DNA of 64,000 nt from Octopus sinensis. Its lineage: Eukaryota. This document shows, piece by piece, positions 19,926-53,898 of the stretch. The notes beneath the pieces are model-generated. The model saw only the letters and a list, made by a program, of their open reading frames with translations, did not search any database and was not told the DNA's origin. The position numbers were made by a program, and so were the translations under genes. The stretch lies in NCBI RefSeq assembly GCF_006345805.1, contig NC_043012.1:7626001-7690000 (forward strand), in the 5' to 3' direction. Position 1 is the stretch's first letter. Every line of letters begins with the position of its first letter.

Positions 19926-21468
19926 CACATATATAGACTAGGAGGTGGATTTTAAAAAGTCAGTTTTTTGGGGCTTTTTTTTTATAGATATTTCTCATAG
20001 AAAGATCCTTGGCCCAATCAGTCATACTCATGACCCAAAACTCATTGGCTATTTTCTTTGTCTTATGCTCCAGTTCATGTGATTCATATGATAAATGGAG
20101 ACAAATCACTTTGCAAAATATAAGCAACGAAAACAGGAGGGTAAACTAAAGAAAATGAAGTCATTTTGCCATAAATATAATATATATTAGCAAGAGGCAG
20201 TATCAATACTGAGAAGTAATATTTATTCCCACTTGAACGTGAATTTTCTATCAGAACAAACTATACAGCAATGGTTACAATCAGAAGAACTCTCATATGG
20301 GATTTTGGTACAAAATGCACTCTTGTTTATATTGCTAGCAGTGAGACAAATCCCAAGCCCCAAGACTATCAGATCATGTGATTTTGATCTTCCTTTGTCT
20401 TGTCAGTGATGGATAGTTGACTGCTAGAAATAACAGCAACTCCTCTCCTTGCTAGTGATATATCAAATGACAATGCCAGAACAGGTGCTGGTGTCATGAT
20501 TAGCCAATGAGCTTGTTTATATATATATATATATATAATATAGGCACAGGCATAGCTGTGTAATTATGAAGTTTGTTTCACAGTTACATGGTTTAGGGCT
20601 CAACTCCATTGCATGACATCTTGAGCAGGTCTTTTATATAGTCTCAGGCCAACCAAAAGCCTTCTGATGAGTTTAGTAGACTGAAAGAAGCCTGTGCAAC
20701 TATTAATCCAGACATTTTTATTTTATACTCTTTTCGGTTTTTTTCTGTAGAAGAGTGTATGCTCAAAATATCGAAGACATTTCCATTTTTCCTGAATGTC
20801 AAACTAATACACCTTGTTTGTTGTTTCTTCACCTGTATATGTCTTTTGTTTTTTGTGTGCTGTTTTAAACACTGTGTGTGTGTGTGTGTGATTATGACTT
20901 CTTGTCTTGACATCACATATAATATATGGTGATATCAAAAAATTTAAATAACTTTGTATTTCAGATTTTACCTGTAATTAGAGTTGAGATAAAGATTACA
21001 TCCATCCATCCATCTTCTCTACTCACTATTCCTGGGAGGGTTGTTGGGGTAGAATCCTCAGGCATCTCTTCCATAGGGTCCTATCAAAAACAACTATCAT
21101 TAGACTTGCCAGCAATGTTTGCTTGGACAGGATTTGAACTCATAATTAATTACTTCAAAGTATCTTGTCTCCAATATTTTACCAATTCTACCATCTACTC
21201 CTTATTAACCCAAAGGTTAGTTTGACACTGCACCTTACTGGCTTGTATGCATTCTTTCTGTGGGCTCAATGCAGAGCTAATTTGAGATAATAAGAGTGAA
21301 TTTGTACTTGCCTCAGGACAAATATACTTCTATTTATACAGGTAACCAGCATAATTTTATTGGTCAAGAAGTGCTTTTTTTTTTCTTTTCTTTTTTCACC
21401 CAATCAAGTGACAATAAATATAAAGTAGGGAGGGGAAAAAAATGACCATATATCTATCTATCTATCTA

Positions 21469-21514
<46 letters not shown>

Positions 21515-21959
21515 ATTATAATCTTCATCATTGTTACCAAAGCCACCACCATCATTATTATCATTGACTTTGTTATTGTTTTACTATCCACTTTTCCTGC
21601 CGGCATTTGGCATTCATTGGGTTTGCTATAAACACATAATATATTATTTAACAGCCTGGACAAATGAATACAGGACTTGACCTAGAGAAGCAGGAAATAT
21701 TTCATAGTTTAGGATCAATAAACGAACACACGAATATGGTGATTCAGAATGAAAGCACGAAACTGGAGTGGCCTTTTAGAAAGAGCTTAGATTGGTTATT
21801 GCTTTCCTGGAGCCTCTAACTCTTTTATGCCCTCGACACCAACAACAGTAGCATACTACACTTATTTATGGCAAAATTACCTGGAAATACATCACTAAAT
21901 CTGTTCTTCTCTTTAAATATGTGATAACAGCATGTTTTCCTGTGTAGATTAGCTTATAT

Positions 21960-22435
21960 CAGTGGTTCTCAACCATTTTCTTATAACCTATGGACCTCTT
22001 TGATTCCTATTTTATTTGTATGAACCCTCATAGCCATTTGATGTAAGAAAAAAAAAACAATCCTATTTTAGTTTTATCATTAAATGTTGGTTTCAAATTT
22101 TGGCACAAGACCAGCAATTTTGGGCAAGAGGGTAAGTCAATTAGATCAACCCAGTGTTCAACTGGTACTTGTTTTATTGATCCCCAGAAAGACGAAGGGC
22201 AAAGTTGACCTTGGCGGAATTTGAACTCGGAATATAAAAACCTGAGATGCCACTAAACATTTTACTTGGCATGCTAACAGTTGCGCCATCTTGCCATCTT
22301 TTTATCATTAAATATTGCTAGGAATTATGTAACAAAATTATTTAAAATATTTTATATATTACAAAAATATAACCAGTTTTTTGCACATAAACTTTAACAA
22401 CAAAATCTTATATGGACCCTGGTTAAAAACCATTG
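21960..22435. mobile_element. hAT MITE with nested SINE family B (~22090-22298, minus strand)
   Basis: CAGTGGTTCTCAACC ... GGTTAAAAACCATTG termini. Confidence 0.75.
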
Positions 22436-23519
22436 CTTTGAATGCTCACCATTTTGTGCCTCGAGAGTTTGCTCTGGTATCTCATCACCATAATCTTTAT
22501 CTTTTTTACAGCTACTCCCACCCACCCTTATATAATGCAGGATGGTTGTGTATTTCTTCTATAGCATGGCACCTGTACCTGTCTATCATACTTTAGCCCC
22601 TCAACACCCAACATAAAGCCACCTCTCCTCTTTCAAATAAACTCTTACTCAGAGAAGAGGGGGTCTTTTTCTTGTCCTACGAGTTAGTTGGTAACATCAC
22701 TAGTGCCAGTGTCACAAATATAGGTACCCAGTATACATTGTAAAGTGATTGGTGTTAAGAAGGGCATCCTGCTGAAGAAACCATGCCAAAGCTGACATAG
22801 GAGAATAACATAGTCCTGTAGCTTGTCAGATTGTATCAAACCATCCAACCTATGACAGCATGGAAAAACAGATGTTAAGTGATGATGATGATGATAAGTT
22901 AAGACCAATGCTCTGTTTGTTGATGGGAACACTTAGGACAAACCACATCCTACTACCATGCCCCTGACCTTTAGTTGATATGAAATCTTTGAAAAGAGTC
23001 TTTTGACCTGTTCAATATTTCAGCTAGGAAACACTTCTCTTTTTAGAAATAGGAACTTTGTCTTTCAATCTGTTCGCTGCAGAAATCAGATATATCTACT
23101 CAAAATTTCATTACTCTCAACTGTGGAAAGCAATTTGCTGAGATATGTCAAGTTTATTGAGGCAATGAGACTTACAGAAATATCAGTTTAAAAAAAATTT
23201 TTTCTTTATTTATTAATCGCTTGTTTTGCTAGATATTTGATGTTGTTACTGGAATAACCATGAAATTTAATTTTGCAATTAAAGTCTAATACGGCATTAT
23301 CTCATGGAAATAAATGAAATAATGAATCCTTGTCATCATTTAACGTCTGTTTTCCATGCTGACATGCATTGGATGGTTTCACAGGAGCTGGCTCCATTTG
23401 TCTGTTTTGGCTTGGTTTCTGTGGCTGGAAGCCCTTCTTAACATCAGCCACTTTATAGTGTGTATTGAGTGCTTTTTAAGTGGCTCCAGCATAGGCATGG
23501 CACCAATTATAATCTTCTA

Positions 23520-24230
23520 TTGCAGTCCTCTCAAGTCATTGAAGAAGACTTGGTGTTTTTTCTCAGCTAAAGAGAAAGAGCAGCTAAATCTCCCATCGCA
23601 CTCTGCTGTCTTCAAAACAGGGTACATTAGTTTGTGAGGCTGTACTATACTTGAAGAAGGCTGGGAAAGTTTTTGATAAATCTGCTTGATCAGAGTTGAC
23701 TTCAGGCTAAACCACAATAACAAGCCTACAAGGGAACCTCTATATGATCACTCAGCTTGCTAGAAATAGCAGCCAAATTTCTTGTGAATCATACATTTGT
23801 GCCTTAAAAAAGGAAGAATACATTGTGCCTGAGCATGAAAATATTCAAGACAAGATGGTTGTGGCTAGAATGAATCTGCAACCATGGTCACCTCTTGATC
23901 ACTGTCCTCTCATCAAGGTTGACCTGGTGTTAAACTACTACTACTCCTGTAACAGTAACAGCTGCTACATCACTAAAACAGGTCATTAATAGAAGAAAAT
24001 ATCTGTAATAAGGCAAGTAAATGACAGAGCACCTGTTCAGCTAATTGTCCTGCTTGAGACAGCAGCTAAATCCTCTCAAATCATTAACTGTTGTCTGAAA
24101 ACAGTAACGACTTATTGGACAGTACAGCCCTAGATATGCTAAGGAAAAGATAGGGTGGTCTTATTTAGCATTTCTTTGATCATAGATCTGCCCTGACCTG
24201 GAGGCTGAGATCAAAACTACCACAACATGT
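23520..24230 (+). mobile_element. About three tandem copies of family D (unclassified retroposon-like repeat with (AAC)n-type tail)
   Basis: GCTAGAAATAGCAGCCAAAT...GATCAGRGYTGACCTGG...TAAACAACAAC; further copies near 18050, 48720(-), 54640, 58550(-) and 60080. Confidence 0.6.
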
Positions 24231-24329
24231 AATAATTTTTGAACATTATTTCATTAATTTAGTATTTTGGTATGCTAACCATTTAGCCACCATATCATGC
24301 TAACCATTTAGCTTCCAAATCATTGACTT

Positions 24330-24433
24330 CCACTGAAGATATGGTTCCAGGTTCATTCTCACAGCATGGGAAAATGTCTTCTACCAAAAAGCCTTATGAA
24401 TGGATTTGGCAGACGGAAACTAAAAGAAGCACA

Positions 24434-24464
<31 letters not shown>

Positions 24465-24680
24465 ACTGTGTAATGTAAAATGATTGTCACCATCATGAAA
24501 GTAATGTCATTCATTTCTAGTTTTCTACAAAATCATGACTGGCCATAGGGGAAAATTACCTCACTTGGAAACGAGTGAGGATTGGTGACAGAAGGGCATC
24601 TAACTGTAGAATACCTACCTTAAAAAAAAAAAAACTCCACCTGGCCCATGCAAACGTGGTAAAATGGTTGTTATGAGATG
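24330..24680 (+). mobile_element. Family E SINE (A-type head with C-type tail)
   Basis: A-like head followed by GGCCATAGGGGAAAATTACC...GAAGGGCATC...CCATGCAAACGTGGTAAAATGG; related sequence at 40940-41290 and 52520-52760. Confidence 0.6.
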
Positions 24681-24748
24681 TGTGTGTGTCATGTGTGTAT
24701 CGTTGGCAATTTTCTTTCTCCGTCTGCCCTTCTTTGGACTTTTTCTAT

Positions 24749-24783
24749 ATTTCTGATGAAGAGCTTCGCTTGAAACGTGAAAT
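24749..24783 (+). ncRNA. Minimal type-I hammerhead ribozyme-like motif
   Basis: ATTT-CTGATGA-A-GAGC-TTC-GCTT-GAAACGT-G-AAAT: stem I ATTT/AAAT, canonical core, stem II, palindromic ACGT stem III; cleavage triplet is GUG (non-permissive in this copy). Confidence 0.7.
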
Positions 24784-24892
24784 CTTTCTTTTCTTTCCTT
24801 TCCTGAGCGTCCAATAACACTGTACTTATTCCACGTCCTCACGTTTATTTTTTCTTGCTTGTTCATGTTTGGATTGAGTATATATATATATA

Positions 24893-25066
24893 TTAGCCAC
24901 TACACACATTTTTTTCTCTCTTTGTTTTTTCTGTGTCCCTTTCTGTAGAAGAGCATAGGCTTGAAACGTAAAAGACTTTTTTCTATTCCAGAGCATTATA
25001 CTAATACATCTGTTTGTTTTGTACACCACCTGTCTTCGTCTTTTGTTTTTTCGTAAACTCTCCCTA
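24893..25066 (+). mobile_element. ~170-bp hammerhead-bearing repeat unit (family H1)
   Basis: CTTT-CTGTAGA-A-GAGC-ATAG-GCTT-GAAACGT-A-AAAG at 24939-24974; homologous units at ~20715, 34552, 39800, 47110(-) and 53725(-). Confidence 0.7.
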
Positions 25067-25099
25067 TATATATATATATACATACATACATACATACAT

Positions 25100-25460
25100 A
25101 CAGGAGTGACTGTGTGGTAAGTAGCTTGCTTACCAACCACATGGTTACAGGTTCAGTCCCACTGCATGGCATCTTGGGCAAGTGTCTTCTACTACAGCCT
25201 CAGGCCGACCAAGGCCTTGTGAGTGGATTTGGTAGATGAAAAACTGAAAGAAGCCCGTTGTATATATATATGTGTTTGTCTGCCCAACATCGCTTGACAA
25301 CCAATGCTGGTGCATTTACATCTTATTCTATCGGCAAAAGAGCCCGATAGTTTAAGTTCTAGGCTTACAAAGAATAAGTCCTGGGGTCAGTTTGCTCAAC
25401 TAAAGGTGGCGCTCCAGCATGGCTGCAGTCAAATGACTGAAACAAGTAAAAGAATAAAAG
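25100..25460 (+). mobile_element. SINE family A
   Basis: Colinear with the consensus. Confidence 0.88.
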
Positions 25461-25966
25461 AAAGAATATATATACAAATATTAAATGAAATAGGGAAATA
25501 CAATTGACAAACTAAAAATTTATTTACATTCTAATATAATAAATATAACAAATCCTTAAAAACCACATATAATGCCAACAATTTGTTCTGACTTATGTAC
25601 AGTAGAGAATTTATAGAAAAATTCTTATCTATGTATGCAAGCCTCTTCAATGTTCAAAAAAACATATGAAATTCTATGTAAGGACTGCCAAATTGCAAAA
25701 ATGCTGATTCCAAAATGCCTGTTTAGCAGTAAAACGAAGGAAATATCTTCATTTATATAGATCAAATACATTTAAATATTCACTGTGTATTGGTTAAAGA
25801 ACATAGTCTTATATTGGGGTATATAAGCTCTCAATGGAAAAAGTAGGTTTTAATACGTATCTATACACACACACATTGTCTATCTGGTTGTATTGATTGA
25901 TAGTCCTTCCAACTAAAGTCCCCAGTAGTATGTCCATTGACTATACATATATGTATATATATATAT

Positions 25967-26180
25967 ACTCTTTTACTCTTTTACTTGTTTCAGTCATTTG
26001 ACTGCGGCCATGCTGGAACATCACCTTTAATCGAGCAAATCGACCCTGGGACTTATTCTTTTGTAAGCCCAGTACTTATTCCATCGGTCTCGTTTGCCGA
26101 ACCGCTAAGTAACGGGGACATAAACACACCAGCATCGGTTGTCAAGCAATGCTAGGGGACAAACACAGACACACACACGC

Positions 26181-26211
<31 letters not shown>

Positions 26212-26378
26212 TACGACGAGCTTCTTTCCGTTTCCGTCTACCAAATCCACTCACAAGGCTTTGGTCGGCCCGAGGCTATAGTAGAAGACACTTGCCCAAG
26301 GTGCCACGCAGTGGGACTGAACCCGGAACCATGAGGTTGGTATACAAGCTACTTACCACACAGCCACTCCTACGCCTA
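25967..26378 (-). mobile_element. SINE family A, full-length, in a (TA)n tract
   Basis: Colinear with the consensus. Confidence 0.9.
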
Positions 26379-26812
26379 TATATATATATATATATATAAT
26401 GTGCATGTATGCATGTTCCTGTGTATGTGTGGTATATTTGTATGTTCACTTATATGTATATAAGCTATATGTTCGACTTAGTTACTAGATCCTCCTATTG
26501 TACCATATTAATTCAACTGGCATTTCCAATCACTAATCCCAAGCAGACGCTCCATTAAAATGACTAACTTGTACCAAAATTCCATGGACGTAGATTCATC
26601 AATTCCCTGAGACTTCACAGACATTGAATTATAGCATATGTCCAAAATATGTGGGCTTATTGCTCTTCGCTCAGTTGAACAGCTTCACTTCCCCACCCCC
26701 CACCTAGCTAATAATATATCCATGTTACCCACCTCCCAGTCTCTTTTTGCAAACCCTTCATCACCCTTTCTCTTTTCTTTTTCCTATTCTAATCAATCTC
26801 CCTCTTCACTCA

Positions 26813-26814
<2 letters not shown>

Positions 26815-26863
<49 letters not shown>

Positions 26864-27098
26864 GTGTGTGTGTGTGTGTGTGTGTGTATGAAATGTAAAT
26901 TTCAATGCTTGGCTATTTTTCTCTTCATTTTTTTTTCTGTGTGTTTGTCCCCAGCTCTTACACCCATTCATTCCTTTTTTTCTATTTTTCCTCTTTTGAT
27001 CAACTTCTGTGCACCAACATTTCTCTCTCTCTCCCCTCTCAATGTGTATATGTGTCATATATATATATATATATATAATGTGCATGTGTGTATGTATG

Positions 27099-27130
<32 letters not shown>

Positions 27131-27345
27131 TGTAGATTTCAGTGTTTCTGCCTTTCTCTTCTCTCCGACTAACCATGTATTTCTCTCTCTCTCTCGTATG
27201 TGTGTATATAATATATATATATATACACACATACATATATGCTCATACACAGATTTCATTGTTTCTGTCTATTTGTCTCTTTTTTTACCCCCTCCAACCA
27301 TCCATCTCTCTCTCTCTCTCCCTCTCTCTCTCTCTCTCTTTCTCC
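26815..27345. repeat. Compound (CT)n/(GT)n/(TA)n microsatellite region
   Basis: Directly visible. Confidence 0.9.
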
Positions 27346-28466
27346 CCACTCTCTTTCATGTCAAAATACTCCATATTTATGTATTTCTCTCCCATCATTT
27401 CCTGTCTATTGTGAAAACATAACTCTGCAATATCAAATTGGCTTCCATAATTCCGTCTCTATCGGCCACTTTGCTTTATTATTATTATTATCATTATTAT
27501 TATTCTTTTATTTATTTATGTGTGTGTGTGGGGGGGGGGGTTTCTATCCCAGGACATCTAAAGGAATTGACTTTCCCCAAGGGTTGGGGAAGGATATGGA
27601 GAAATAAGAATTTTGTGTATTTTTGCTATTCTATTTCAGTTACTTAAAAAGTATTTCGAAATTGATCAACGAAAGAAAAATAGGAATTTTATAAGTGTGT
27701 GTTTGTGTGTGTGTAATGTATCTATATGTGTATGTGTGCATAAAAGAAAATACAACTGAAAAATGAAATTACTATTTAGAAATACATGTACATCTGTACG
27801 TATGTATGGGTGTGTGTGTGAAATCTCAGCTGAGGTGGGGGAAGGATTGGGCATGAAGAAAATGGATTGCTTACACAGGAAATTATGTCATTGAATCATA
27901 ATAGTTGTCTTAAAATTTCAACTCGATTACCACAATATGGCAATAGGTGGAGAGTGGGGGAAGGGGAACAATAATTGTTTAGTGCCCTGCTCAAAATAAC
28001 TGTGTGATAATGGCTTAATAGAATGGAAGAATGATCAACGTGTGTATTAATGGACACAAGGCCATCATGCGGATAACCACTTTTTAGATTGTTTGTTTGC
28101 TTCATAATGAGCTATCAACAATACAACTGAAGCAATATTCCTCAGGAGGCTATATTTAATATGGTGGGTTGAAAAATGTTGAGATCCCAGCAATTAGTAG
28201 GCATAAACTCACTCAATGGAGTTGTTTAAAATCTAAAAGAAGGGGAAATAACTCTTGTTAGATCAGTTGATTGAAACATGCTCATTGCTTTCACCCATTG
28301 GCTTTACCTCAGTCAATTTGGTTTCATGATACAAGCCGCTTGTTTAAAGTGATCTAAATTATAACCTGCCATTAAAATTTCATGTTAATTCATATTCCTA
28401 ATGCCAGCTTAAGTGAATCAAAGGCAGTGTATTTCAACAGAAATATGCTAATAAAAGGGTTAAAAA

Positions 28467-29612
28467 CACTGGTTTTACAAATTTTTTTTTTTTTTTAGGC
28501 AAGGATGTGAATGGGTGTGTTTTTCACTAATTTTGATGTGATGAATTCAATTTTCTGAACAGTTCTACTCTATCACCTCTATTTTATTTCCTTTCACATA
28601 TCCCATTTTAATTATACTGCATATAAATTCAAAATATAATGTTTATTTCATCTGTAACAAAGGCATGTTACAGGGAAAAAAAACAACAACTAAGATATGG
28701 AACATTGATGGAACTAAATTACTTGGATAATACAATACATACAAATCAAAGTACAGCAGACAGAAGTGATTTTTTTTTTGGGGGGGGGGATGATCTTGTG
28801 TACTTTGTCTCTGGGATGTCACTCAAGAGCATCCGGCAAAAGGTCCCCATCATGTTGGGGTTCCACTTGCCTTAGTAGTTGCTCTCCATTTTAGTAATAT
28901 CTTGATAGAACCTTTCTCCATGCTCATCACTCACTGCTCTAAGCTTTGGAGGGAAAAAGTTATGGTGGGAGTGGAGAGAGTGAATTTTGAGTGACATTCA
29001 GCATCCCATATCCTCGTAAGACTGTAATAACTTCTCGATACACTCTTGGTAATCTAGTACCCATATGTTACCAAGAAAGCTGTGGCAGACTGAGTTAAAT
29101 GCTTCCTATGCTCTCAGTTCCTTTAAAGTAAGAAGCTCCTCAAAGTCCTTGTCTTTCAACACCTCTCATATCTGAGGTCCGACGAAATTTCCCTTCATGA
29201 GCTTAGCAGAACTCAGAGCTGGGAACAGAGAGCACAAGTATTGGAAGGCAGCGCCATTTTTGTCCATGACCTTCACGAAATTCTTCATTAAGCCAAGCTT
29301 GATATGAAGAGGGGGAAGAAGCACCTTGTTCGTGTCCACCACAGGATTTTCTTGGACACTGTGTTCATCAGACATGAAAGTACTCCTAGATCCCCAGTCC
29401 TTCTGCTTGTAGTGCTTGGACAGAGCCCAACTCTCCTAGAGACAGAGAAAGCAACAGTACTTTGTGAAACCCACTTGCATACCCATAAGGAGCCCAGTGA
29501 CCTTGAGGTCCCTGCAGAGACTCCACTGGTACTGGTTGTACTTGACAACTTCCAAAACGAGCTACATATTGTTATAAGACTCTTTCTGATGGACTGAGTA
29601 AGGATATTTGGT
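28467..29612 (-). mobile_element. Chapaev3-like (CMC superfamily) DNA transposon fossil: 3' part of the transposase pseudogene plus one terminus
   Basis: Translation KESYNNM*...WSLCRDLKVTGLLMGMQVGFTKYCCFLC...LLPPLHIKLGLMKNFVK...GNFVGPQI*...MSLKIHSLHSH...VSDEHGERFYQDI with in-frame stops; CACTGG terminus at 28467. The family name is from recalled motifs. Confidence 0.75.
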
Positions 29613-30933
29613 CTTTTTTCTAGAAGCATTGAAACCTGTTACATTTGTTAGACAATTGAGGGTTGTTGACAGGAAGGACATCCAGCCATAGAAAATCTGC
29701 CTCAGTGAATTTCATTAACCCTATGCAAGCATGGAAAAGTGAACAGTAAAACAATCATGTTGATAATAAATGAGATAGGGGTGTGTGTGTGTGTGTAATT
29801 TCCCTTCTCTTGTGTCACACAAATATTAAATATTAAAAACAAGTATTTTAATCAAGAATGAAGTATTTGCAAGTGTTGTGTACATTGATTTCTTTTTTGA
29901 TTTTTTTTGTTCCAAATATGTTATTACACAACCCAGTTCTTCAATAATTAGAAGTATTGATGTAAGCTTTATACATATATTGAATGTATATATTAGTCAT
30001 TCATTATTTTTTTACTTGTTTATTATGAAGAGGAGGAACATTATTTTACTGTAACAAGCTAATCTTTACCACCAGTGCTGGAATAGGTTTTGGCTAGAAT
30101 CTTTCTCTAGCAGAAGTCCTATCCAGGTTGATGATTATCTCTCATCTGGTGAGATCAAAGCATCTGGTGAGATCGAAGCATCTGGTGTTCATCTAGAACA
30201 GGTGTTGGTAAAGTGGTCAATATTGACTCCTGTTAGGGTGGGGTCTGTATGGCTGTCCAGGGGGTTGATATACACCTGAAAAGATCTTGATCATTAAGGG
30301 TTCTGAGTTTATAGCAAACTGAATCTGACAATACAGTAATTTAAGGCTAAAACTCACTAATTTCCAACCAAATATCAATGTAAAATCTAGTATGCACCCA
30401 ACACATATTTTACTCTAAGTATTCCAACTATATCAATATTGCATGACTAAACTTTTATTGTTCTTCATCAATTTCATTAAGTATTTTTATTAAATTTTTT
30501 TATTTCTTATTAAAATGTAGATATGCCACAGAAGAATGGAGGAATTATTGCTTTTAAATGAAAAAAAAAAGATTATTAATTATACAGGCATAGGAGTGCC
30601 TGTATGTTAAGAGTGCCTGTGGTTCCCCGTTCAGTTCCAGAATGTATATATTAGATCTCTATACTTAGATCTCTCATGAGCTCTAAGATTCATAAGACCA
30701 GAGCTCAACCTGGTTTTCCATGGTATATAAGTGATTGAGACATCACAACACTCACCCCTGAATGGGCTGCCAGTCCTTTGCAGGGTCAACTGCCCAGATA
30801 ATTCTGGAACACATTTACAGCTGAATGAACTGGATCAATGTGAAATAAGTTCTTTTGCTTAAGAACACAGTGCACTGCCAAGTTCTGGAATCAAAACCAC
30901 AATCCCGTGGTCATTAGTGCAAAACTCTAATGC

Positions 30934-34190: not shown

Positions 34191-34551
34191 AAACACCTTG
34201 CTTCATTATATACAGTTTTTTTAAGTATCAGATTCAGCTATAAGAATTAGGTCGTTAGCATACAGAAATTCCCCTACATAGACACCTGGTTTACACTACA
34301 CTAGAGAACATGTATCTTTTTCTTTTTTTCTTTTTCAATCATTGAATTGTGGCCATGCTGAAGCACCATCTTGAAGAATTTTTACTCAAATGAATTGACC
34401 GGAATACTTTTTTTTTCTTTAAGGCTAGTGCTTATTCTTTTGGTCTCTTTTGCCAAACTGCTAAGTTATGAGGATGTAAACACACCAACACTTGTTGTCA
34501 AGTAGTTTGGAGGACGACACAGGCATAAAGACAAACACGTACACACACACA

Positions 34552-34727
34552 TCGTTAGCTCCTAAACGCATTTTTTTCTCTCCTTGTTTTTTTCTGTGTA
34601 TTTTTCTGCCAAAGAGCGTAGGCTCGAAACGTAAAAGACTTTTTCTATTCCTGAGCGCTATACTAATACATTTGTTTGTTTGTACTCCGCCTGCCTTCGT
34701 CTTTTGTTTATTTTCGTAAACTTTCCC

Positions 34728-34730
<3 letters not shown>
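34552..34730 (+). mobile_element. Family H1 hammerhead-like unit inserted in the central microsatellite of a SINE A (34320-34955, minus strand)
   Basis: TTTT-CTGCCAA-A-GAGC-GTAG-GCTC-GAAACGT-A-AAAG at 34602-34637. Confidence 0.7.
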
Positions 34731-34774
<44 letters not shown>

Positions 34775-34776
34775 GC

Positions 34777-35421
34777 ACACACACACACACACACATGACA
34801 GCTTTCAGTTTCTCTCTATCAAGGCTTTGGTTTCCACTCAGAAGCTTTGGTCAACCTGAGGCTATGGTAGAAAATACTTGCTCAAGATGCCACACAGTGG
34901 GACAGTACTCTGAACCATGTGGATGGGAAGCAAGCTTCTTAACGCATGGCCATGCCTACATATTTTTTTAACCAACTTTATAATAGACTTATGCTTTAGA
35001 GGTCTGTTATGACTTCAGAACTTAAGTTTGAACTAAACCTGATTTTTGTGTTGTTGAAGTGACTGAGAATACACTGCTCATCTTCTACTATAGCCCCAGG
35101 CCAACTAGAACCTTGTAAGTGGATTTGATGTCATTTCCTATAGTCGCAAGTCAACCCAAACCTTGTAAGTGAAATTGGGTAGAAAGATAGGTGGAAACTG
35201 TACAGAATCCCAGTGGTGGGATTCTGCCTGCAATTCAAAGATACAGCTTTGTTACAAATTAGGTTAAGGTTATATGTGTTTGTGGAATACTCAGCTACTT
35301 GCATGTTAATCATATGAGCAGGAAATCCAGTTGATCAAAAAACTGGATACCTGTCATGGGAATTGACAGAAATCCAACCATGCACACACACACACACCAC
35401 TCACATATGTGCTCTCACACA

Positions 35422-38680: not shown

Positions 38681-39656
38681 TATAACAATGTATTGCGCTT
38701 GTCCCACTTTCGATAAACAGATATATATATATAGAGGGGTGAGGATGACTAAACAAACACACAACAATAGAATTGGCTGTTGTATGTCAGATTATAAAGG
38801 ACTGCAACAAGTGATGATGTGCTGTGAGACCCACCCAATCTTGTAATTGTGTGTGGGGGGGGGGTGCTTGCACACACACTCTTGCTTAAAAAATTTTAAC
38901 AAAAAAAAAAAACCATGCATCCTTGCATTATGTTAACCCTTGAGACTAATAATATACCATTGTATTTTACAGTCTAGCATTAGAAGTTTGCTCCTGCTTC
39001 CATGTGTGTGTGTGTGTGTATGTTTCTATGTATGTGAATACATGTTCATATGCACATGCGTGTAATTTAACAAAATGTCACATATTTTATTCAACGCGAA
39101 TAAATACAAAAATAGAATTTTGGGTGTTGTTTCTCCATGAGAGACTAAAACAGGAAGAAAATTAAACGCATGCACACACACACACACACACTGTTGTATT
39201 ATTTCCATTGATGGTTTCTCTTGTTTTTTTCTTTTCTTTTCTTTTTTCTTTTTTTTGGATAAATTCTTTTGTGCTGAACAATGTTTTAATCCTAATTAGC
39301 TTTACCCTTATTAGGAAACACTAGCATGATAATCAAAATGATGTGTAAGTCAGACTTCTGGAGACACACCCACCTTCATTAGAACTAAACATACCTGGCA
39401 AGTCTTAAATACTTTATAAGTAAACTTACAGTTAGGTCTTTAAGAGATATTAAAGATAGACACTCATTGGAATTGGTACATTAGTGAAAGTGATGTGAAT
39501 GCTAAAAGTGGATCGGGACTACAAAATGAAGTGTTGTAGATGAGATGAAGAAATGTCAAATATTTAAGTATTCTAAAGTTGCACATTTTTCTATTACAAG
39601 TTCCCTTTTCCCACACTTTTCATCCACTCTTGTCCTTATAATTAAGGAGCCTGTCG

Positions 39657-40206
39657 TAGGAGTGGCTGTGTGGTAAGTAGCTTGCTTACCAACCACATGG
39701 TTCCAGGTTCAGTCCCACTGTGTAGCACCTTGAGCAAGTGTCTTCTACTATAGCCTCGGGTCGACCAAAGCCTTGTGAGTGGATTTGGTAGATGGAAACG
39801 TATATAGGCTCGAAACGTTAAAGACTTGTTTTATTTATATTTCCTGAGCGCCATACTAATACAATTGTTTTTTTGTATTCCACCTGCCTTCGTCTTTTGT
39901 TTATTTCCGTAAACCTGCCTTTGTCTTTTGTCTATTTTCATAAAGCTTCCCGTTATATATATGTGTGTGTGTGTGTGTGTGTTTGTTTGTATATGTTTGT
40001 ATGTCTGTGTCTGAACCCCCAACATTGCTTGACAATTGATGCTGGTGTGTTTACGTCCCTGTAACTTAGTGGTTCGGCAAAAGAGACTGCTAGAATAAGT
40101 ACTAGGCTTACAAAGAATAAGTCCTGGGGTCGATTTGCTCAACTAAAGGCGGTGCTCCAGCATGACCACAGTCAAATGACTGAAACAAGTAAAAGAGTAA
40201 AAGAGA
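39657..40206 (+). mobile_element. SINE family A interrupted by a 5'-truncated H1 unit (~39800-39952)
   Basis: SINE breaks at GATGGAAAC; insert begins ATAGGCTCGAAACGTTAAAGAC. Confidence 0.85.
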
Positions 40207-42853: not shown

Positions 42854-42892
<39 letters not shown>

Positions 42893-42896
<4 letters not shown>

Positions 42897-43152: not shown

Positions 43153-43173
43153 TATATATATATATATATATAT

Positions 43174-44320: not shown

Positions 44321-44819
44321 GAAAAGTTTATTAGTTATTGGACATATTTCAGAAAACCATCTGTAGTTTGCTCAGTTGTTGTTGAGGTCTACTGAAGGTC
44401 TCTGTCCAAATTTTTGTGCATCAGTGTAAAACCATTACTAAATAAATATACAGAGCTCTGTAAAACCCAACAAGTGTGAATTAAGTATTTGTTCGAGTTT
44501 CACATGGCCAAAACAAGCATGCTCTTTACCTCCACTTATATATAACATATTCATTGTTAATGATGGAAGTAGTATTAGCTCAGAATAGAACTCATTATAT
44601 CTTACTTAGCATGGATATACTGTAGAAAGCCAAAAAAAAAAAACTATGGCATTTCTAAAACCTACGGAAGCATATCAGTAGCAGGTGAAAAGTGTTCAGC
44701 AGTGGTTGTGTAATTGTTAGATCCAGATATTCTTTTATCTATTTCAGTCATTTGATTGTGGCCATGCTGGAGCACCACATTTAGTCGAACAAATCGATCC
44801 CAGGATATGTTCTTTGTAA

Positions 44820-45095
44820 TACAGTTCTGTATTTAAGAGATGAGGAATTATGTACATCATTTACAATTGACGGATATTTGTCCCCAAGATTCCGAGTTCG
44901 ATTCCAGGCAGTGACCTGAATAATAATAATAATAATAATAATGATAACAACATCGTAAAATACCTTAGGAATGAGAACCCAGGTTCGAAATTTCCCTAAG
45001 ACACCTGATGAAGGCTGGAGGGTATATCAGCTGAAACGTGTTAACAACAAACAAGATGAGGACAAATATCCGTCAATTGTAAATAAATGTAAATA
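44820..45095 (+). mobile_element. Insertion with B-box, hammerhead-like motif and inverted end (H4), inside a SINE A (44735-45352, minus strand)
   Basis: 10-bp TSD TTCTTTGTAA (44810-44819 / 45096-45105); 25-bp perfect IR 44859-44883 / 45060-45084; GTTCGATTCC at 44896-44905; ACAC-CTGATGA-A-GGCTG...CAGCT-GAAAC-GTGT at 45001-45041. Confidence 0.8.
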
Positions 45096-46111
45096 TTCTT
45101 TGTAAGCCTAGTACTTATTCTGTTGGTCTCTTTTGCCGAACCACTAAGTTACAGGGGCATAACACATAAGTTGGGGGATAAACACACACACATATATAGA
45201 CAGGCTTCTTTCATTTTCCGTCTCCCAAATCCACTCACAAGGCTTTGGTCAGCCCGAGGCTATAGAAGAAGACAGTTGCCCATGGTGCCACACAGTGGGA
45301 CTGAACCCAGAGCCATGTGGTTCGTAAGCAAGCTACTTACCACTCAGCCACATAATTTTTTTTTTTTTTTTTTTTTTGTTCTTTCATTTATTCAAAACAT
45401 ATTCTTGTTTCCTAGCAAAGCTGCTGCAACTGCAGTGTGAAGTACTCTGAGTAGTGACTCATGCATATGAGGCTTTGCATCAATATTGCTATTGTACTCT
45501 ATCCAGAATTATTGAGTACCCTTTTTTTATGTAGTTTACACAAGTGTGAAATTACCACACTTTATTTGTGTGTATTTGTAGTGTAACATATGTTTGAAAT
45601 GTTGAAATTTCAAACATATAACATAACAAGCAAGTTTGAATTAGGGGTAAAAAAACTCAAAGAAGTTACATTGTATTTTTTACTAAGAAACAGAAAGCTG
45701 GCATCTGAAGTATTCAAGAGATAGATGAACACAGATAGCCATACATATAGATGAGAGACAGCAGGGGACACACAGCAAGACTTTAAACTGGACACCAACA
45801 GATTTATTGTGAAGATTAAAAACCAATCAGTAATTTACACCAAAAATTCTGTCGTTAAATCAATTCGAAATAACTAACTTGACTTTGTAGATTATTGAAA
45901 GCATCGGTCAATATTATACAGTCTGTGATGGGGTACCAATGTTACTCATTAATTCAGATAAATGATTGTATTTGAAATGATGAGATAGTGAGCTGGTGTA
46001 GAATGAAGCTAACAAACCACTAATAAGTACTACAATATAATATGAGGGACCAGAGAAGTGATGAGGGAGTCTGGAGTGCCTGTCTTAAAGTGGCATCTCA
46101 CCAGTTTGTCT

Positions 46112-46603
46112 TAACCATTTAGCATTCAGATTACTGTGTGAAATGCAATGTTAATTTATTCACATTGTTTTGAATTAATCATACATATTGAAGGTGGTGC
46201 CCCAGCATGACCGCAGTCTAATGACTGAAACAATTAAAAGGTATCTTGTAGCTTTGAAGGCAGTGAGCTAGCAGAACTGTTAGCACGCCAGGCAAAATGC
46301 TTGGTGGTATTTCGTCTGATTTACGTTGTGAGTTCAAATTCCACCGAAGTCGTCTTTGCCGTTCATCTTTTCAGGGTTGATAAATTAAGTATCAGTTGTG
46401 TACTGGAGGTGATCTGATCAAATGTTTCGAGCCTTGTGCCTAGAGTAGAAAAGATTATCTTGTAGCTTTGAGATTCTAGTGATGTGATAGTTTATTTTTA
46501 GAATGACATTGTGGGGTAAGTGTGAGAGACCAGTTCTGGTCAGTCTGAGTATAAAACAGAATGTTTGGGTTGGATATGGCCTGTTTAAATGCTGAAGGGT
46601 TAA
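46112..46603. mobile_element. piggyBac-type MITE carrying nested SINE fragments
   Basis: TTAACCATTTAGCATT ... AATGCTGAAGGGTTAA. Confidence 0.75.
46258..46455 (+). mobile_element. SINE family B, complete copy with 16-bp TSD
   Basis: TATCTTGTAGCTTTGA at 46242-46257 and 46456-46471; head GGCAGTGAGCTAGCAGAA and B-box-like GAGTTCAAATTCC. Confidence 0.9.
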
Positions 46604-47490
46604 AGAGTAGAAACCACAGTAGTAGTAGTAGTAGTAGGAGTAGTAGAAACAGATGTGACATAGCATAATTGTGAATCTTTAAAGGTGCTTGTGACTACAT
46701 GCTAATCAAAATAGTCTTTGTCTGCATTTAGTCTAGAATGTGTGTGTGGAAGTAGTTTTCTGTTGTGGGTTTCACTTGAGCTGTTCCTGGGAGATGAAGA
46801 CTTTATTGGCTCTAAAGTGAAAGGCCAGTCTTTTGTTATGACAGCGATGTTGGTGATGATGACAATAGCAATCAATGCTCAGCCTCACTCTTTAGCTATC
46901 ATTCAACTGACATTATCCACACATACTCACCACTGATGTAGTCTTCTCTATTGAACTACTGTTTAAAACTTTGCTTTGTCTAAAAGCTATGGGCTGGAGA
47001 TTTTCTTTGTTCAACTGTTTGTTAGCCTGGTTTCTGCATGTTGTAAGAGGCAAATAAAAGGGTTGGTTATAAGAAGGGCATCTGGCTGTAACACAATGCT
47101 TCAGAAAAATTATCCGTAGTTCAAATTTACAGAAAGCAAAAGACAGATAGGTGAGGGGACAACAAGCAGGTGTATTAGTTTGATGCTCAGGAAGAACGGA
47201 AAAGTCCTCAACATTTTGAGCCTATGCTCTTTGACAGAAAGGATTGAGAGGAAAAAAATTGGAGAGAGAGAATGAAGAAAAGAAAAACAAAATGTGTAGG
47301 GATTAAGAGTTCAACATGATGAAATAATCCATGTCAGCATGGAATACTGACTGTAAAATACTTGATAATGATAGCTGATATCCATGAATATATCATGGAA
47401 ATTTATCCTGCTTTTTTTTATATTTTATTCCAATTTTTTTCCCTATGTTAAATTCCTTCTATAACAATGTTTCTTTTTTCTTCTCTTCAG

Positions 47491-47544
47491 TTTCTTCATA
47501 AAAACCTACCAGCCCAACCAGAGAACCTCAGGCCAAAACATCCG
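47491..47544 (+). other. Candidate 54-bp internal exon
   Basis: Polypyrimidine acceptor TTTCTTTTTTCTTCTCTTCAG| and donor CCG|GTTAGT; length is a multiple of 3; open in two frames (FLHKNLPAQPENLRPKHP or FFIKTYQPNQRTSGQNI); product not recognised. Confidence 0.3.
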
Positions 47545-49198
47545 GTTAGTTCAGTGATGGATATCACTTCTTTATATCTTTCTTTTATAAATGAGAACCA
47601 TGAGGATTTGGATAAGAACTATGCAGGGAAAGTCTTTGAAGGGGTGTTTCACCAATGAGGACTATGATGTGGTTTTCATAAACTTGAGGTCAAAAGCACT
47701 GATCTCATATAAAACACCCATGCTGGTGCCATGTAACAAGCACTCAATACACTCTGCAAAGTGGCTGGCATTAGGAAGATGGAGCCTGTTATGGTTCTTG
47801 ACCTTACCAGCTCCAGTCAAACCATCCAACCCATGCCAGCATGGAAAATGGATGTTAATGATGATGATGATGATGATGATGATGTTTTCCCACTGCTCTT
47901 GGAGACTTTGTTGTAGTATTTCTATATATGTATGTCAGTTACCAGCATTATGTATTTTTCAGAACTGATGCTATTTTTTCATGTTTGTAAAGATGTCTAT
48001 GTATGTCTGTACACGTGTGTGTGTGTCTGTGTATTTGGTTATGTAAGATGCCTTACTCTGTGTCTCTGTCTCCCCCCTCTCTTTTGCTTGTGTATTTTCA
48101 ATATAACTAAATGAAATATTACTTTTATGCAATTTTTAAAATTCATGCTTAGAGCAGTTGCTGTTTTTTGGGAGTTTTTTTCCCTTTGCAAATTTACTTC
48201 CATCTGTTTTACTAACACACGCATGAACTCACATAAATGCTAACATAGCTTTCACACGCACGCATCTGCACACAATGTATTCTTTTCTCCTTTTTCTTGC
48301 AGACTCTTTTTAACAAGTACAAGTCCTTTCCTCACATATTTTCATCTCTCCCTCCCATTCTCTTTCTCCCCTCTGCCCTTCTTCTCCTTCTTTCAACCTC
48401 ATCCTCTTCCTCTCCTACTCCTCCCTTACCCATCCTGACTTTCTCCTCTGCCCTACACTGTTGTCGCCAACTACTTGTGCAAATTGTAGATGTAAAACTA
48501 GACTTTATGATGTCACTACCACTGCCTCCTACCCCTGACACCTTTAAACTTTTGAAGTTTCCTCCCCACCGCCAGAAATGTTTTAGCTAAAAGCTGAATC
48601 TGTATTCACGGAACCATTTCATTCCATTAGCCCCACACTCCACTGGTTCCCTGAGAACTTACCAATTGTGCCACATCAAATAATTTTAAGGATTACAATT
48701 GATTCTCACTCAACATTTTAGCCAACTCTGGTCAGCTGAAGTCCAGACTTGCTTTCAGTTTGAATCAAACCAACTTATGTTCAAAAGCACTCCAGCCTTG
48801 ACCATCCCATCATTTTTATTCAGACAGTATATCTAAAGTTACATTACTATTAGCCTATATCAGCTTTTCTTTTTGTTTTTATGATGATAGGATGTGATTA
48901 TGAGTGAGATTTGGCTGTTATTTCTAGTGAGTTGAGAGCACATAGACGTTCTTTCTTCAATGATTTATTTCATGATTAAGTGTATGGGTTTTCTAGATCC
49001 TTAATTTTGTGTTTTTGTGCTTCTAACCATCTTCCTCTTATCAGATCACAGACCATCTTTTAAGTACCATATTGTCTACGTATATGTATCATGTTCTATG
49101 GCACAGTTTGAACTTATATATAAAAACCCAATGTTTTTTTCATGTTTGTAAAGATATTTATGTATGTCCGAGTGTGTATGTGTGTGTTTACATATATA

Positions 49199-50422
49199 CA
49201 GGGGTTGGACAAAATAATGGAAACACCTTAAAATTTCAAACAAATTTATTTTAATACGGGGTAGGACTGCTTTTGGCAGTAATTGCAGTTTGAATTCTAC
49301 AAGGTATGGACTCATACAAAGTTTGAATTGTTTCCAAAGGAATTTTTGTCCATTCTCCGGCTAAAACAGTCTCCAGTTCTTGTGGTGATGATGGTGGAGG
49401 ATATTGACTCCTTACTTGTTTTTCTAAAATGCGCCATAAATGTTCAATGGTATTGAGATCTGGGGACTATGGTGGCCAAATAAGATTAGAATGTTCTTCG
49501 TGCCATTCACTAACAACTTTAGTTGTGTGAATTGGTGCATTATCATCCTGAAAGATTGCATTTCCCTCCAGAAACAATTCCACAACTATAGGATGAATTT
49601 CATCTGATAAAATGCTTAAATAGTCTTGACTGTTAATTCTGCCATGAAAGGAAACCATTGGGCTGGCTGATTTCCAAGATATAGCCATCACAGATCCTCT
49701 ATGTTTAACACTTGGAAGAAGGCAGTCTGGGTCAAATGCTTCTTTTGACAGTCTCTACATGAATACTCAGCTGGTGGTCAGAAATAAGATAAAAAAGATT
49801 ACTTGTCCAAGAAATTAACATTCTTCCACTGCTCTAGGGACCAATTCTGTAGGTTTTTACTCCACTCTAAACACTTTGCAGCGTTTGTTTTTGAAAGTAG
49901 TAGTTTTCTGATTGCAGCCCTCCCGTGTGAAGCTCCTGGTGAACAGTTTTTGTGGAAACTGGGTTCTTGAGGTGCAGTAATTTTGGGAGCTGTACTTTTG
50001 TGATCCTTTCTAACAATTTGAGTAAGAGTCCGACAGTCCCTATCTGAAAGTTTTGGTTTTCTTGCAGCGTTTTGTTTTGACGAGGAGGTTTTCCCTCTTT
50101 CTCAAAGGCTGTCTCATAACTTTCGAGACAGTACTTCTTGCTACACCAAACATTTCAGCTGTTTTCATTATGCTGCGCCTGCCAAATGACCACCAACAAT
50201 TTGACCTCTTTGAAAGTCCAATAGATCTGTCGTTTTAGCGAATTTTAATTAACTTTTGCTGACGATATCTGAAAAGAAAGAGCAATTTTAGTAAAACATA
50301 TTAAGCAACACTAACGATAAATCAAAAAACAAATATAAACAGGCTTTTGACAGTTTTATAGATATTTCAAAATTATGATACTGTGATGCTAGGCGTTTCC
50401 ATTATTTTTTGTCCAACCCCTG
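49199..50422 (-). mobile_element. Tc1/mariner (Tc1 type) DNA transposon, full-length, transposase inactivated
   Basis: TIRs CAGGGGTTGGACAAAATAATGGAAACACCT / AGGCGTTTCCATTATTTTTTGTCCAACCCCTG with left TA; peptides DFQRGQIVG, FQDDNAPIH, WPP*SPDLNTIEHLW, PTPY*. Confidence 0.92.
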
Positions 50423-50460
50423 TGTATGTGCAATATATATATACATGTATGTGTATATAT

Positions 50461-50599
50461 GGCGCAGGAGTGGCTGTGTGGTAAGTAGCTTGCTAACCAG
50501 CCACATGGTTCCAGTGTCTTCTGCTATAGCCCCGGGCCGACCAATGCCTTGTGAGTTGATTTGGTAGACGAAAACTGAAAGAAGCTTGTCGTATATATG

Positions 50600-50630
<31 letters not shown>

Positions 50631-50832
50631 TTGTCCCCCTAGCATTGCTTGACAACCGATGCTGGTGTGTTTACGTCCCAGTCACTTAGCGGTTCAGCAA
50701 AAGAGATTGATGGAATAAGTACTGGGCTTACAAAGAATAAGTCCTGGGGTCGATTTGCTCGACTAAAGGTGGTGCTCCAGCATGGCCGCAGTCAAATGAC
50801 TGAAACAAGTAAAAGAGTAAAGAGTAAAAGAG
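50461..50832 (+). mobile_element. SINE family A with an internal deletion in the head
   Basis: Colinear with the consensus apart from the deletion. Confidence 0.9.
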
Positions 50833-51199
50833 TATATATATATATGTATATATATATATATACACACACACACATACATATGTGTGCATGTGTGTGTACT
50901 TGTGTATGTAACTTTTGTCTGCATATTTCTCTCATGTTCTTTGACACAGTTTGAACTCGCAGACTTAATTCCTGATGTAAATATAATTGTTCACATCAAA
51001 GTGTGTGTGATATGTATTTTCATATGTGGGTCTGTTCGATTAATATGTTGACATTTCTGTGTGTTCTGCATGTGTGTGTGTGTGTATTTATATTTTTATG
51101 TGTTCCATGAGTGGGAATGGGACTCAAAGTGTCTTTATAAGTGGCTGCTTATTTCAATGATTATGCACTTATGTGTGTGACATTTGTACTTTTTTTACT

Positions 51200-51880
51200 T
51201 TTCATTTGTTTCAGTCATTAGACTGCACCCATGCTGGGGCACCGCCTTGCAGAATTTTAGTTGAATGAATCAACTCCAGTTCTTATTTTTTTTATCCTTT
51301 TAAGCTTGGTACTTATTCTATCGATCTGTTTTGCCAAGCCACTAAGTTACAAGAATGTAATCACACCTACACCTGTTGTCGAGTGATACTGAGGAACAAA
51401 CAAAAACACACACTCACAGAAGCATATAAAGGATGATCTCAAGACATTGAGCCTTACAAAGGAGATGACAAAGGACTGAGATATCTGGTACCTTGCTGCA
51501 CTCAAGACAACCCGTCCATTACAGCAGAACTGGTGCCACATAAAAAGCACCCAATACACTCTGTGGGGTGGTTGACATTAGGTAGGGCATCCAACCATAG
51601 AAACCATGCCAGATAAGATAATGGAGCCTGGTGTGGGTCCTGGCCTTAGCAGCTCCAGTCAAACCATCCAATCCATGCCAGCATGGAAAACAGACACTGA
51701 ATGATGATGATAAATATTTACATTGGACTGCTTTTGGTTTCCATCTCCCAAATCCACTTACAAGGCTTTGTTCGGCCTGAGTCTATAGCAGAAGACACTT
51801 GTCCAAGGTGCCACTCAGTGGACTGAACCCCAAATCTCGAAATTGGAAAGCAAACTTCTTAGCCAAACAGCCATACTTGT
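51200..51880 (-). mobile_element. Diverged SINE A with a nested family C element (~51420-51710, plus strand)
   Basis: The two A halves flank a GGGCATCC...CCATGCCAGCATGGAAAA...GATGATGAT element. Confidence 0.7.
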
Positions 51881-53724
51881 ACATGTATATCTTTTTACAT
51901 ATTTCTGTCTTTCTATTTGTGAACATATGTAAATTAAAGTGTATTTGTTACTATTTACCTCTCTATATAATATTAACACCATCATCATTGTTTCAGCATC
52001 TTTTCCATGCTTACATGGAAATGATTCGTTAAGGCACATATTCTACAGCAGTATGTTCTCCTGTCACCAGATCTCCCCCATTTCTAAGCAAGGTGATATT
52101 TTCCCTAGTTTAGATATGTTTCCACAGGAGATTTCAAATTACAAACAGCACTTGTGAAAGTATTACTTCGGTGGATAAAAGAATATGATACACATGGCCG
52201 TGTGGTCAAGAAGCTTGCTTTGCAACCATGAAGTTTTGGGATCATTTCCAAATGTGGTACTTTGGGCAAGTGTCCTTGTGAGTGGATTTGGTAGGTGGAA
52301 ACTGAAAGAAGCCTGTTTTGTGTGTGTGTTTATATAAATATATATATATCACAGGCATGTGTGTACATGTGTATCTTTGTGGTTCAACAAGAGTCTGATA
52401 GAATAAGTACTGAGCTTTAAAATAAAAAAAGTACTGGGGTTAATTCATTTGACTAAAAATTCTTCAAGGTGGTGCTCCAGCATGGCCACAGTTTAATGAT
52501 CGAAACAAGTAAAAGAATATATATGTGTTTGTGTGTGTGCACCCCTGTTTTGACACCACATGTTGGGATAGTTGTAAATAAACATCGTCATACAAGCAAT
52601 GTCGGTCATTTCCAGTCTCCTGTCAAACATGTCTGACCATGGGGAAATATTACCTTACTTGGAAACATGTGGCTGACAACAAGAAAGGCGTCCAGCTGTA
52701 GAAAATCTATCCCAACAAATCTTGTTTGACCCTTGTAAGCATGGAAAAGTGGATGTTTAAAAAAGTAATCTTTTACATGTAAATTTAGTACATTTATTTC
52801 AGTGTGTGTGTCTGTGTGTTTGTGTGCGCATTTCAGTGCAGTGACTGACAGACACGCCAGTCCTAAAACAGTAGCTGTTTAGGAAATGTACACCAAGTGT
52901 ATATGTTGCCACCCCTATATATATTCATTGTACAAACTTACTCTGCTGTGTTAACTCTTGATAGCCACACCCAAACAAACATGTCTGTACAATTCTTCTA
53001 ATGCTTCTCATTAGAGTCTCAAATGTCTCTGTTAAATATTGAAATTTATATACACATGTTTATTTATTACGTATAATCGTTTCCTTAAAAGAAGCCATGT
53101 AGCCTCTCTGTATGGTTTGACCCCATGATATAGACTGTGTAGAAGTATCTGGAAGATTTAGAAACTTGAGATATGCGTTAGGATTCCAGACATGAGAAAG
53201 CCATACCAGCAGAGAGAATAACCGTATTTACTTGTGTATAATGCAAGAAATTTAATACAAAGCATCAGTGTCTAAAAGGAAGAGGTAGCATTATACTTGG
53301 GCTTAGAAAAAGAAAAATCAAGGATAAAATATGTTAATGACTTTAGGTGCAAAATATGACTGTGGTGTTGCTGCTTGTATTCACCATCATCATCATCATC
53401 ATCATTATTTTACATTTGCTTTTTTCTTACTGGCAAAGGTTGGGTGGGTCACCACAGTTTGAGACATTTATTATTGGAAGCTATTGCTCTTAAAACCCTG
53501 GTAATTTTATCATATTTTTCTAAGATGGCAAAATCGTTAGCATGCTGGGCAAAATGCTTAGTGGTATTTCATCTGTCTTCGTGTTCTGAGTTCAAATTCT
53601 GCTAGGGTCAGCTTTACCTTTCATCCATTTGGGGGCTAATAAAATAAGTATCAGTTGAGTCTTGGGGTCAGTGTAATCAACTTAACCCATTCCTCAAAAC
53701 TGCTGGCCTTGTGCCAAAATTTGA

Positions 53725-53896
53725 AACAAAAGACGAAGACAGGTGAGAGAACAACAAGCAGGTGTATTAGTTTAACACTCAGGAAGAATGGAAAAGTCTT
53801 TGACATTTCAAGCCTATGCTCTTTGACAGAAAGGATTGAGAAGGAAAAAAATGGAGAGAGAATGAGAAAAAATGTATAAGGATTAACAGTTCAACA

Positions 53897-53898
<2 letters not shown>
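53725..53898 (-). mobile_element. Family H1 hammerhead-like unit
   Basis: Minus strand CTTT-CTGTCAA-A-GAGC-ATAG-GCTT-GAAATGT-C-AAAG; close to the copy at 47110-47320; adjacent to (TA)n. Confidence 0.6.

Follow-up and report, generated by a model that had tools for sequence, protein, structure and literature searches.

Analysis of a 64,000-nucleotide window of the Octopus sinensis genome (RefSeq assembly GCF_006345805.1, contig NC_043012.1, positions 7,626,001 to 7,690,000 of the forward strand; window coordinates are used below) revealed six copies of a dispersed repeat, H1, which carries a minimal type I hammerhead ribozyme motif with U instead of the canonical A at core position 6. The substitution was family-wide, and five of the six copies lay beside dinucleotide microsatellites. 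The interpretation that we favor, with a probability of about 0.45, is that H1 may be a non-autonomous, Penelope-derived repeat, the RNA of which keeps a dimeric hammerhead fold that is muted by U6 and would cut weakly and with help.

Searches of the whole window with blastn and nhmmer, using the copy at 34556-34735 as query, recovered the six dispersed copies listed in the original prediction, each about 180–200 nt long (nhmmer E-values of 3e-27 to 1e-7 for the five non-query copies). Five copies retained the ribozyme core, with C3 at 20745, 24943 and 34606 on the plus strand and at 47237 and 53829 on the minus strand; in that order, the cores were CTGTAGA, CTGTAGA, CTGCCAA, CTGTCAA and CTGTCAA, exactly as first read. 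Of the positions given earlier, the minus-strand figures (47110 and 53725) mark 3′ ends. From the core onward the copies were 72–89% identical, and they fell into two subfamilies, A (24943, 34606 and ~39804) and B (20745, 47237 and 53829). A bulged A followed A9 in all five cores, and none of the six copies had G at position 17, which was A, T or C. A relaxed motif, derived post hoc from the H1 copies, had six matches in the window (the five H1 cores and an A6 sister at 24753) and none in 100 simulated windows. There was further damage at G8 or G12 in four of the five cored copies, and the copy at 24943 was the only one in the window to keep every core position except 6 (with a G10.1-U11.1 wobble). 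Stem I, stem II and the GAAACGT box had all been described as recognizable, which held for stem I (4–5 pairs in 5/5 cored copies); stem II and the box were damaged in several copies (GAGT and AAAATAT at 20745, AAAATGT at 47237, and GAAATGT at 53829). The window copies fit the CpG decay that had been proposed for the core: the three copies with A8 all had C7, and both copies with A7 kept G8.

The whole motif was delimited at 34601-34638 (+) from its sequence, the family letters, the fold and the descriptor of minimal hammerheads published for Penelope-like elements (PMC4209133; published sources are cited from excerpts throughout). It comprised stem I (34601-05/34634-38), the core (34606-12, with position 6 at 34609), a bulged A (34613), stem II (34614-17/34622-25), the GAAA box (34626-29), a palindromic ACGT (34629-32), and a predicted cut after H17 (34633). 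The descriptor consists of a CUGANGA (or UUGANAA) core, a stem II of 3–7 bp with a loop of 3–10 nt, GAAANNUH with palindromic 15.1–16.1, and a stem I of 3–7 bp, and the H1 majority sequence had all of these elements except position 6. Its first strand was 8 nt long, including the extra nucleotide (A) between A9 and G10.1, and stem II was 4 bp (GAGC/GCTC), opened by G10.1-C11.1 and closed by a 4-nt loop. GAAACGT was followed by A or T across the family in a pile-up of public contigs, and the ACGU palindrome fits GAAANNUH. The same pile-up listed no variant at 34613 and none in stem II at 4%. Because the descriptor begins with “cuganga,” it could not return H1; a scan of the window with 4227 Rfam families gave no matches, and no hammerhead model reached its gathering score. 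H1 is thus built like a Penelope minimal hammerhead but fails CUGANGA, and is better regarded as a variant of that kind than filed as a member. Folding gave pairing probabilities of 0.99–1.0 for stem II and 0.77–0.90 for stem I, with A6 or U6 alike. The idea that U6 locks an inactive hairpin was not supported, since stems I and II form alike with either letter and a clear gain in mis-pairing was predicted for U6-U7 only. An alternative register with a canonical core was rejected by eye, there being no A after CUG, and self-cofolding of natural H1 copies yielded no clean dimer model.

The pile-up placed public contigs at 80% likeness onto the copy at 34552-34730, using four of 24 listed runs, namely X1 (12208 contigs, organism label A), X2 (15838, B), X14 (2032, E) and X12 (194, A; that this is an RNA run is a guess). 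Variants were listed from 4%, and depth was summed word depth, not copy number. Position 6 was T in 961868 of 1041520 depth (92%) in X1, 93% in X2, 87% in X14 and 99% in X12, while A was unlisted, i.e., <4%, in all four runs. As the reference copy has C6, T and A competed equally in this comparison. The A6-to-U change was therefore family-wide, as originally proposed, and no canonical CUGANGA consensus appeared. At position 7, C predominated (at least two thirds of depth in X1, X2, and X14), with T at 17–36%, A at 1–25% and G at 2–10%; position 8 was G in 88–99% of depth. The majority core of the family is CUGUCGA, or more accurately CUGU(C>U>A>G)GA; U6 and G8 of the CUGU(C/A)GA core suggested as ancestral stood, and position 7 proved wider than suggested. 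The reference copy differed from the X1 majority at four listed positions of 179, including two private core changes, C6 and A8.

Core depth was about one fifth of stem II depth, with many contigs clipped at 34612, and the consensus of the loose ends clipped there also read U6 in 4/4 runs (agreement 0.65–0.76). Clipping would also affect A6 relatives with other 5′ flanks, and the U6 share therefore describes H1 and not all hammerheads of the genome. In X14, depth was 290,000–400,000 over 34612-34641 and <14,000 from 34654 on, indicating that the ribozyme half is the part shared in organism E. Position 17 was A and U, with no G at 4% in the four runs. At the CpG on the border of stem II and its loop, the loop G varied at 5–10% and the stem C was unlisted. 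A second CpG, at 34630-34631 in helix III, varied at 4–17%, compared with ≤4% at the 11.1/G12 CpG; linked CG-to-TA subfamilies are possible there, although the variants were unphased.

Two hammerhead-like motifs with A6, both missed in the original prediction, were found in the window. The one related to H1 belongs to a sister element at 24700..24878 (+; ends approximate; nhmmer E-value 0.005), which has C3 at 24753 and a CTGATGA core, shares 66–73% identity with H1 copies counted from the core onward, and precedes the 24943 core by 190 nt on the plus strand. Its motif (24753-24783, +) combines the stem II of H1 and a loop of 3 nt with G17. Stem I pair 2.4/1.4 is A-U in this sister and C-G in the H1 majority, and this one pair, relative to the A6 sister, is what was found of the compensatory stem conservation that had been anticipated. 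A 34637 G>T variant, present at 9–10% in X1 and X2, may derive from the sister. The second motif (45005-45045, +) was unrelated to H1, with a canonical A6 core, a longer stem II, and a cut-site region that looks shortened or has G17; it sits within an insert of ~300 nt with a short direct repeat on either side, probably a further remnant of a Penelope-like element.

A metagenome control, in which H1 stem II and GAAACGT were fixed and positions 6–7 left free, returned at least 120 matches at at least 119 loci. Among the 120 matches listed, position 6 was A in 116, G in 2, C in 1 and T in 1; A6 was found in 99/103 distinct contexts and 34/37 loop types. Position 7 could be any letter among these matches, position 17 was G in 2/103 contexts, and stem I was fully paired in 61/103, representing 11 sequence types (shuffled mean 5.2; 13/2000 shuffles reached 11). 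The lone U6 match listed (L081) looks private, the other members of its family having A6. At three of the 119 listed loci (L026, L073, and L006), the A6 motif stood 100–676 nt behind Penelope-like open reading frames (ORFs); L026 had an RVT_1 match (E-value 5e-8), and CxxC (CX2-5CxxC-type linker) and GIY-YIG-like motifs were visible by eye in all three, without a Pfam match. These controls identify the motif class as the Penelope minimal hammerhead, with A6 as its rule. At one further locus (L050:604-689), two A6 minimal hammerheads lay on opposite strands, separated by ~30 nt; Penelope-like insertions have been described with such an inverted arrangement. The U6 pattern had no matches in viral contigs and none in prokaryote genomes.

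The distribution of non-CpG variants at ≥4% in the pile-up was compared among position classes, the partition having been chosen after the table was seen. None of the 20 positions in the core, stem II and helix III was variable, versus 16/56 downstream positions (Fisher p = 0.008, pooled). In stem I, 3/10 positions were variable, giving 3/30 for all constrained positions (p = 0.059 against the flank), with 0/8 subfamily-diagnostic differences. Of the seven free positions, only 7 and 17 were variable. Variation in H1 thus falls where hammerheads permit it, with all four letters at position 7 and A or U at position 17 (C in two window copies). Judged from this pattern, selection on the fold after the U6 change is likely.

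The individual copies differed in state and setting. In subfamily A, the copy at 24894..25072 (+; C3 24943, U6 24946, A17 24970) lies between two (TA)n tracts; the copy at 34552..34730 (+; core C6 and A8), which served as the pile-up reference, is young; and the copy at 39804..39957 (+; T17 39819) is 5′-truncated, starting in loop II without the C3-G10 half and ending in a duplicated 3′ tail. In subfamily B, the most decayed copy is that at 20691..20866 (+; C3 20745, U6 20748, A7, G12>A, C17 20772). Its helix III (20768-20771) reads ATAT and is still palindromic in this, the oldest copy. The copies at 47125..47322 (-; C3 47237, U6 47234, A8, G12>A, T17 47210) and 53723..53900 (-; C3 53829, U6 53826, A8, C17 53802) complete the set, the latter abutting (TA)n at its 5′ end. 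In five of the six copies, at least one end abuts a (TA)n, (CA)n or (TG)n tract, an uncontrolled count in a window where such tracts are very common. Within the window, all are dispersed monomers kilobases apart, with none of the tandem units that characterize retrozymes. The window itself has a GC content of 37.6% and a CpG observed/expected ratio of 0.28, and is repeat-rich, with many microsatellites and an abundant family resembling short interspersed nuclear elements (SINEs). The truncated copy at 39804..39957 lies inside this SINE-like repeat, and at 39650-40200, 34411-34960 and 53868-54095, H1 was found inside or beside its microsatellite tract, indicating that H1 was inserted later than the SINE-like repeat, at least there. 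Broken ORFs at ~49250-50240 (-) resemble, by eye, a Tc1/mariner transposase, and those at ~29170-29640 another DNA-transposon remnant; neither had a Pfam match at an E-value of 0.001.

In the mechanism that we propose, H1 would derive from a Penelope-like element (possibly of the Neptune type), specifically from its terminal repeat, and be moved in trans by the reverse transcriptase (RT)/GIY-YIG protein of that element. U6 would have had a single origin in an A6 ancestor resembling the 24753 sister, predating the split of subfamilies A and B and that of the three labeled organisms, and master copies would have stayed selected for the hammerhead fold afterwards. Helix III would be formed between two RNAs, by pairing of their ACGU palindromes. 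U6 would be expected to lower self-cleavage in Mg2+ by orders of magnitude with G8 and G12 remaining, so that most H1 RNA would stay uncut and be usable as template, while cutting after H17 would be conditional on a helper, probably the protein of the element. In O. vulgaris, 190 families of Penelope-like elements account for 6.83% of the genome (PMC13282606, the available supplement of which holds no repeat sequences to match H1 against). An insertion bias toward microsatellites has been attributed to Neptune and Naiad (PMC8557442). A further criterion for the Neptune clade is a CX2-5CxxC linker joining the RT to the endonuclease.

The published data point to a large loss of cleavage for U6. 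A natural A6C ribozyme from phage Bcep176 cuts at <0.1 per min (PMC3088659), and A6C in another hammerhead lowered the rate from 0.3 to 3.55e-6 per min at 0.3 mM Mg2+, with 0.18 per min in Mn2+ (PMC7151607). Penelope minimal hammerheads are weak cutters even with A6 (PMC4209133), and the hammerhead of a Penelope-like element of Anolis cuts only with its protein, the uncut RNA being the main insertion substrate in vitro (PMC11167929). A literature search found no cleavage measurement for U6 in the minimal-hammerhead class and no natural U6 hammerhead family, although an earlier mention is possible in works outside its coverage (Lunse et al., 2017; Ruffner, 1990; the Terminon paper).

Several observations weigh against a muted but still conditional ribozyme of Penelope origin. 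When a type III hammerhead was scanned pairwise, all single and double mutants of the CUGA turn except the C3/G8 swap showed low activity without rescue (PMC9901934), and the U6-U7 monomer of H1 is predicted to mis-pair its core (-10.8 vs. -8.4 kcal/mol). Support for conservation weakens in subsets of the data: run X1 alone gave p = 0.057 (4% cut) or 0.10 (8% cut), subfamily A vs. B among the window copies differed at 1/20 core and 19/118 flank positions (p = 0.31), constrained vs. free positions gave p = 0.06–0.23 under the post hoc partition, and contig seeding may conceal core variants of subfamily B. No compensatory change was shown within H1. As to origin, no Penelope ORF remnant was detected in the window (best tblastn E-value 0.44; none of the 148 ORFs scanned, out of 277, matched Pfam), and the 5′ part of H1 was unlike the DNA upstream of metagenome A6 ribozymes, the common ground being the ~28-nt motif only. 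The tie of H1 to an autonomous element is consequently one that we infer. A resemblance of the H1 5′ end to an endonuclease tail (TLNP-like, by eye) was dropped, since a profile of 59 upstream regions matched nothing in the window.

Among the other explanations, the one that we consider the least improbable, though still unlikely, is that the U6 motif has lost cutting entirely and that its fold is kept because a Penelope-like protein recognizes it or loads on it, making it a mobilization signal in cis. Catalytic hammerhead mutants of the Anolis element insert as well as wild type in vitro, with no RNA-seq read ending at the cut site (PMC11167929), Naiad elements, which lack canonical hammerheads, attain very high copy numbers (PMC8557442), and both the unrescued CUGA-turn mutants (PMC9901934) and the failure to see reversion to A6 at 4% in four runs agree with such a role. 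It sits less well with position 17, which follows the cleavage rule of A, U or C but never G in the six copies and, at 4%, in the four runs, even if very few events are involved, and with the natural phage ribozyme that cuts despite a pyrimidine at position 6. A more doubtful possibility is that a master copy with a dead A6U ribozyme was amplified by chance, the conservation of the core being due to chance or alignment bias. The window-only test (p = 0.31), the borderline result of X1 alone and contig seeding that favors the shared central 30 nt would all be expected on this account, which is opposed by the pooled p of 0.008, by the sharing of the ribozyme half but not the flanks in organism E, and by the lack of subfamily-diagnostic differences in stem I (0/8).

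We regard as quite improbable that H1 RNA supplies the substrate half of a mixed dimer, in which the shared ACGU palindrome and a stem I that fits would let the A6 core of a related and perhaps autonomous element cut it. An A6 sister that has the stem II and palindrome of H1, and agrees with it at 3/4 pairs of stem I, does stand on the same strand as an H1 copy, 190 nt away, and minimal hammerheads have been proposed to act as dimers (PMC4209133). Such an arrangement would not need H1's own C3, U4, G5, G8, A9 and stem II, yet these are without listed non-CpG variants; moreover, a single adjacency may be chance, and the 24753 sister has G17. The least credible explanation is that U6 is a natural core cutting about as well as the A6 minimal hammerheads in Mg2+. 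Its pattern of free and fixed positions is that of active hammerheads, and U6 looks stable. Nonetheless, the position-6 changes in the literature excerpted are all losses in Mg2+ (PMC3088659; PMC9901934; PMC7151607), A6 prevails in 99/103 distinct control contexts among the matches listed, and the H1 core has no second-site change able to compensate.

Comparison with known systems places H1 closest to the metazoan Penelope-like minimal hammerheads (Cervera and De la Pena, 2014; PMC4209133), with which it has in common the type I layout, the extra nucleotide at 9/10.1, G10.1-C11.1, palindromic 15.2–16.2, the lack of an own helix III, a short stem I, a U-rich 5′ flank, and an occurrence mostly as single dispersed motifs away from the ORF. 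It differs in having U6 where all representatives in their Figure S3 have A6, the sole core change named in the excerpted text being U3-A8; moreover, those motifs belong to elements that encode RT and GIY-YIG in an ORF, and lie in their terminal repeats, whereas no linked ORF was found for H1 within the window. The Bcep176 phage hammerhead (Perreault, 2011, PMC3088659; Naghdi, 2020, PMC7151607) likewise combines a natural pyrimidine 6 with an otherwise intact core; it is, however, a single phage ribozyme with C6, shown by assay to be slow in Mg2+ and good in Mn2+, while H1 is a high-copy animal repeat family with U6, known here from sequence alone. The PAc hammerhead of Anolis Poseidon (PMC11167929), also a Penelope-like terminal-repeat hammerhead, offers a model for protein-assisted cutting and uncut template, although it belongs to an autonomous element with an ORF that begins within the ribozyme, and the excerpted account mentions no position-6 variant, whereas H1 is short and non-coding. 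The non-LTR (long terminal repeat) retrozymes (PMC7229834; bioRxiv 10.64898/2026.07.22.740005) resemble H1 in being non-autonomous elements of animals, a few hundred bases long and equipped with a type I hammerhead, and have been argued to descend from Penelope-like terminal repeats; they form tandem arrays and typically have canonical cores, unlike the dispersed monomers and minimal U6 motif of H1.

Hammerheads of Penelope-like elements are poor cutters on their own, and one in vitro system could dispense with cutting. The U6 fold of H1 and the A6 sister with equal stem II provide a ready pair for asking whether selection acts on cutting or on shape. A6 has been treated as fixed and is hard-coded in the published descriptor (PMC4209133), to which a high-copy U6 family is invisible. 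Somewhat doubtfully, the U6 hammerhead may be a real conditional ribozyme (dependent on protein, Mn2+ or a partner RNA), selected across species within a repeat that ranks among the most abundant of the host, the muted cleavage having aided the spread of the family; if so, a large ribozyme class would be hidden from searches based on CUGANGA.

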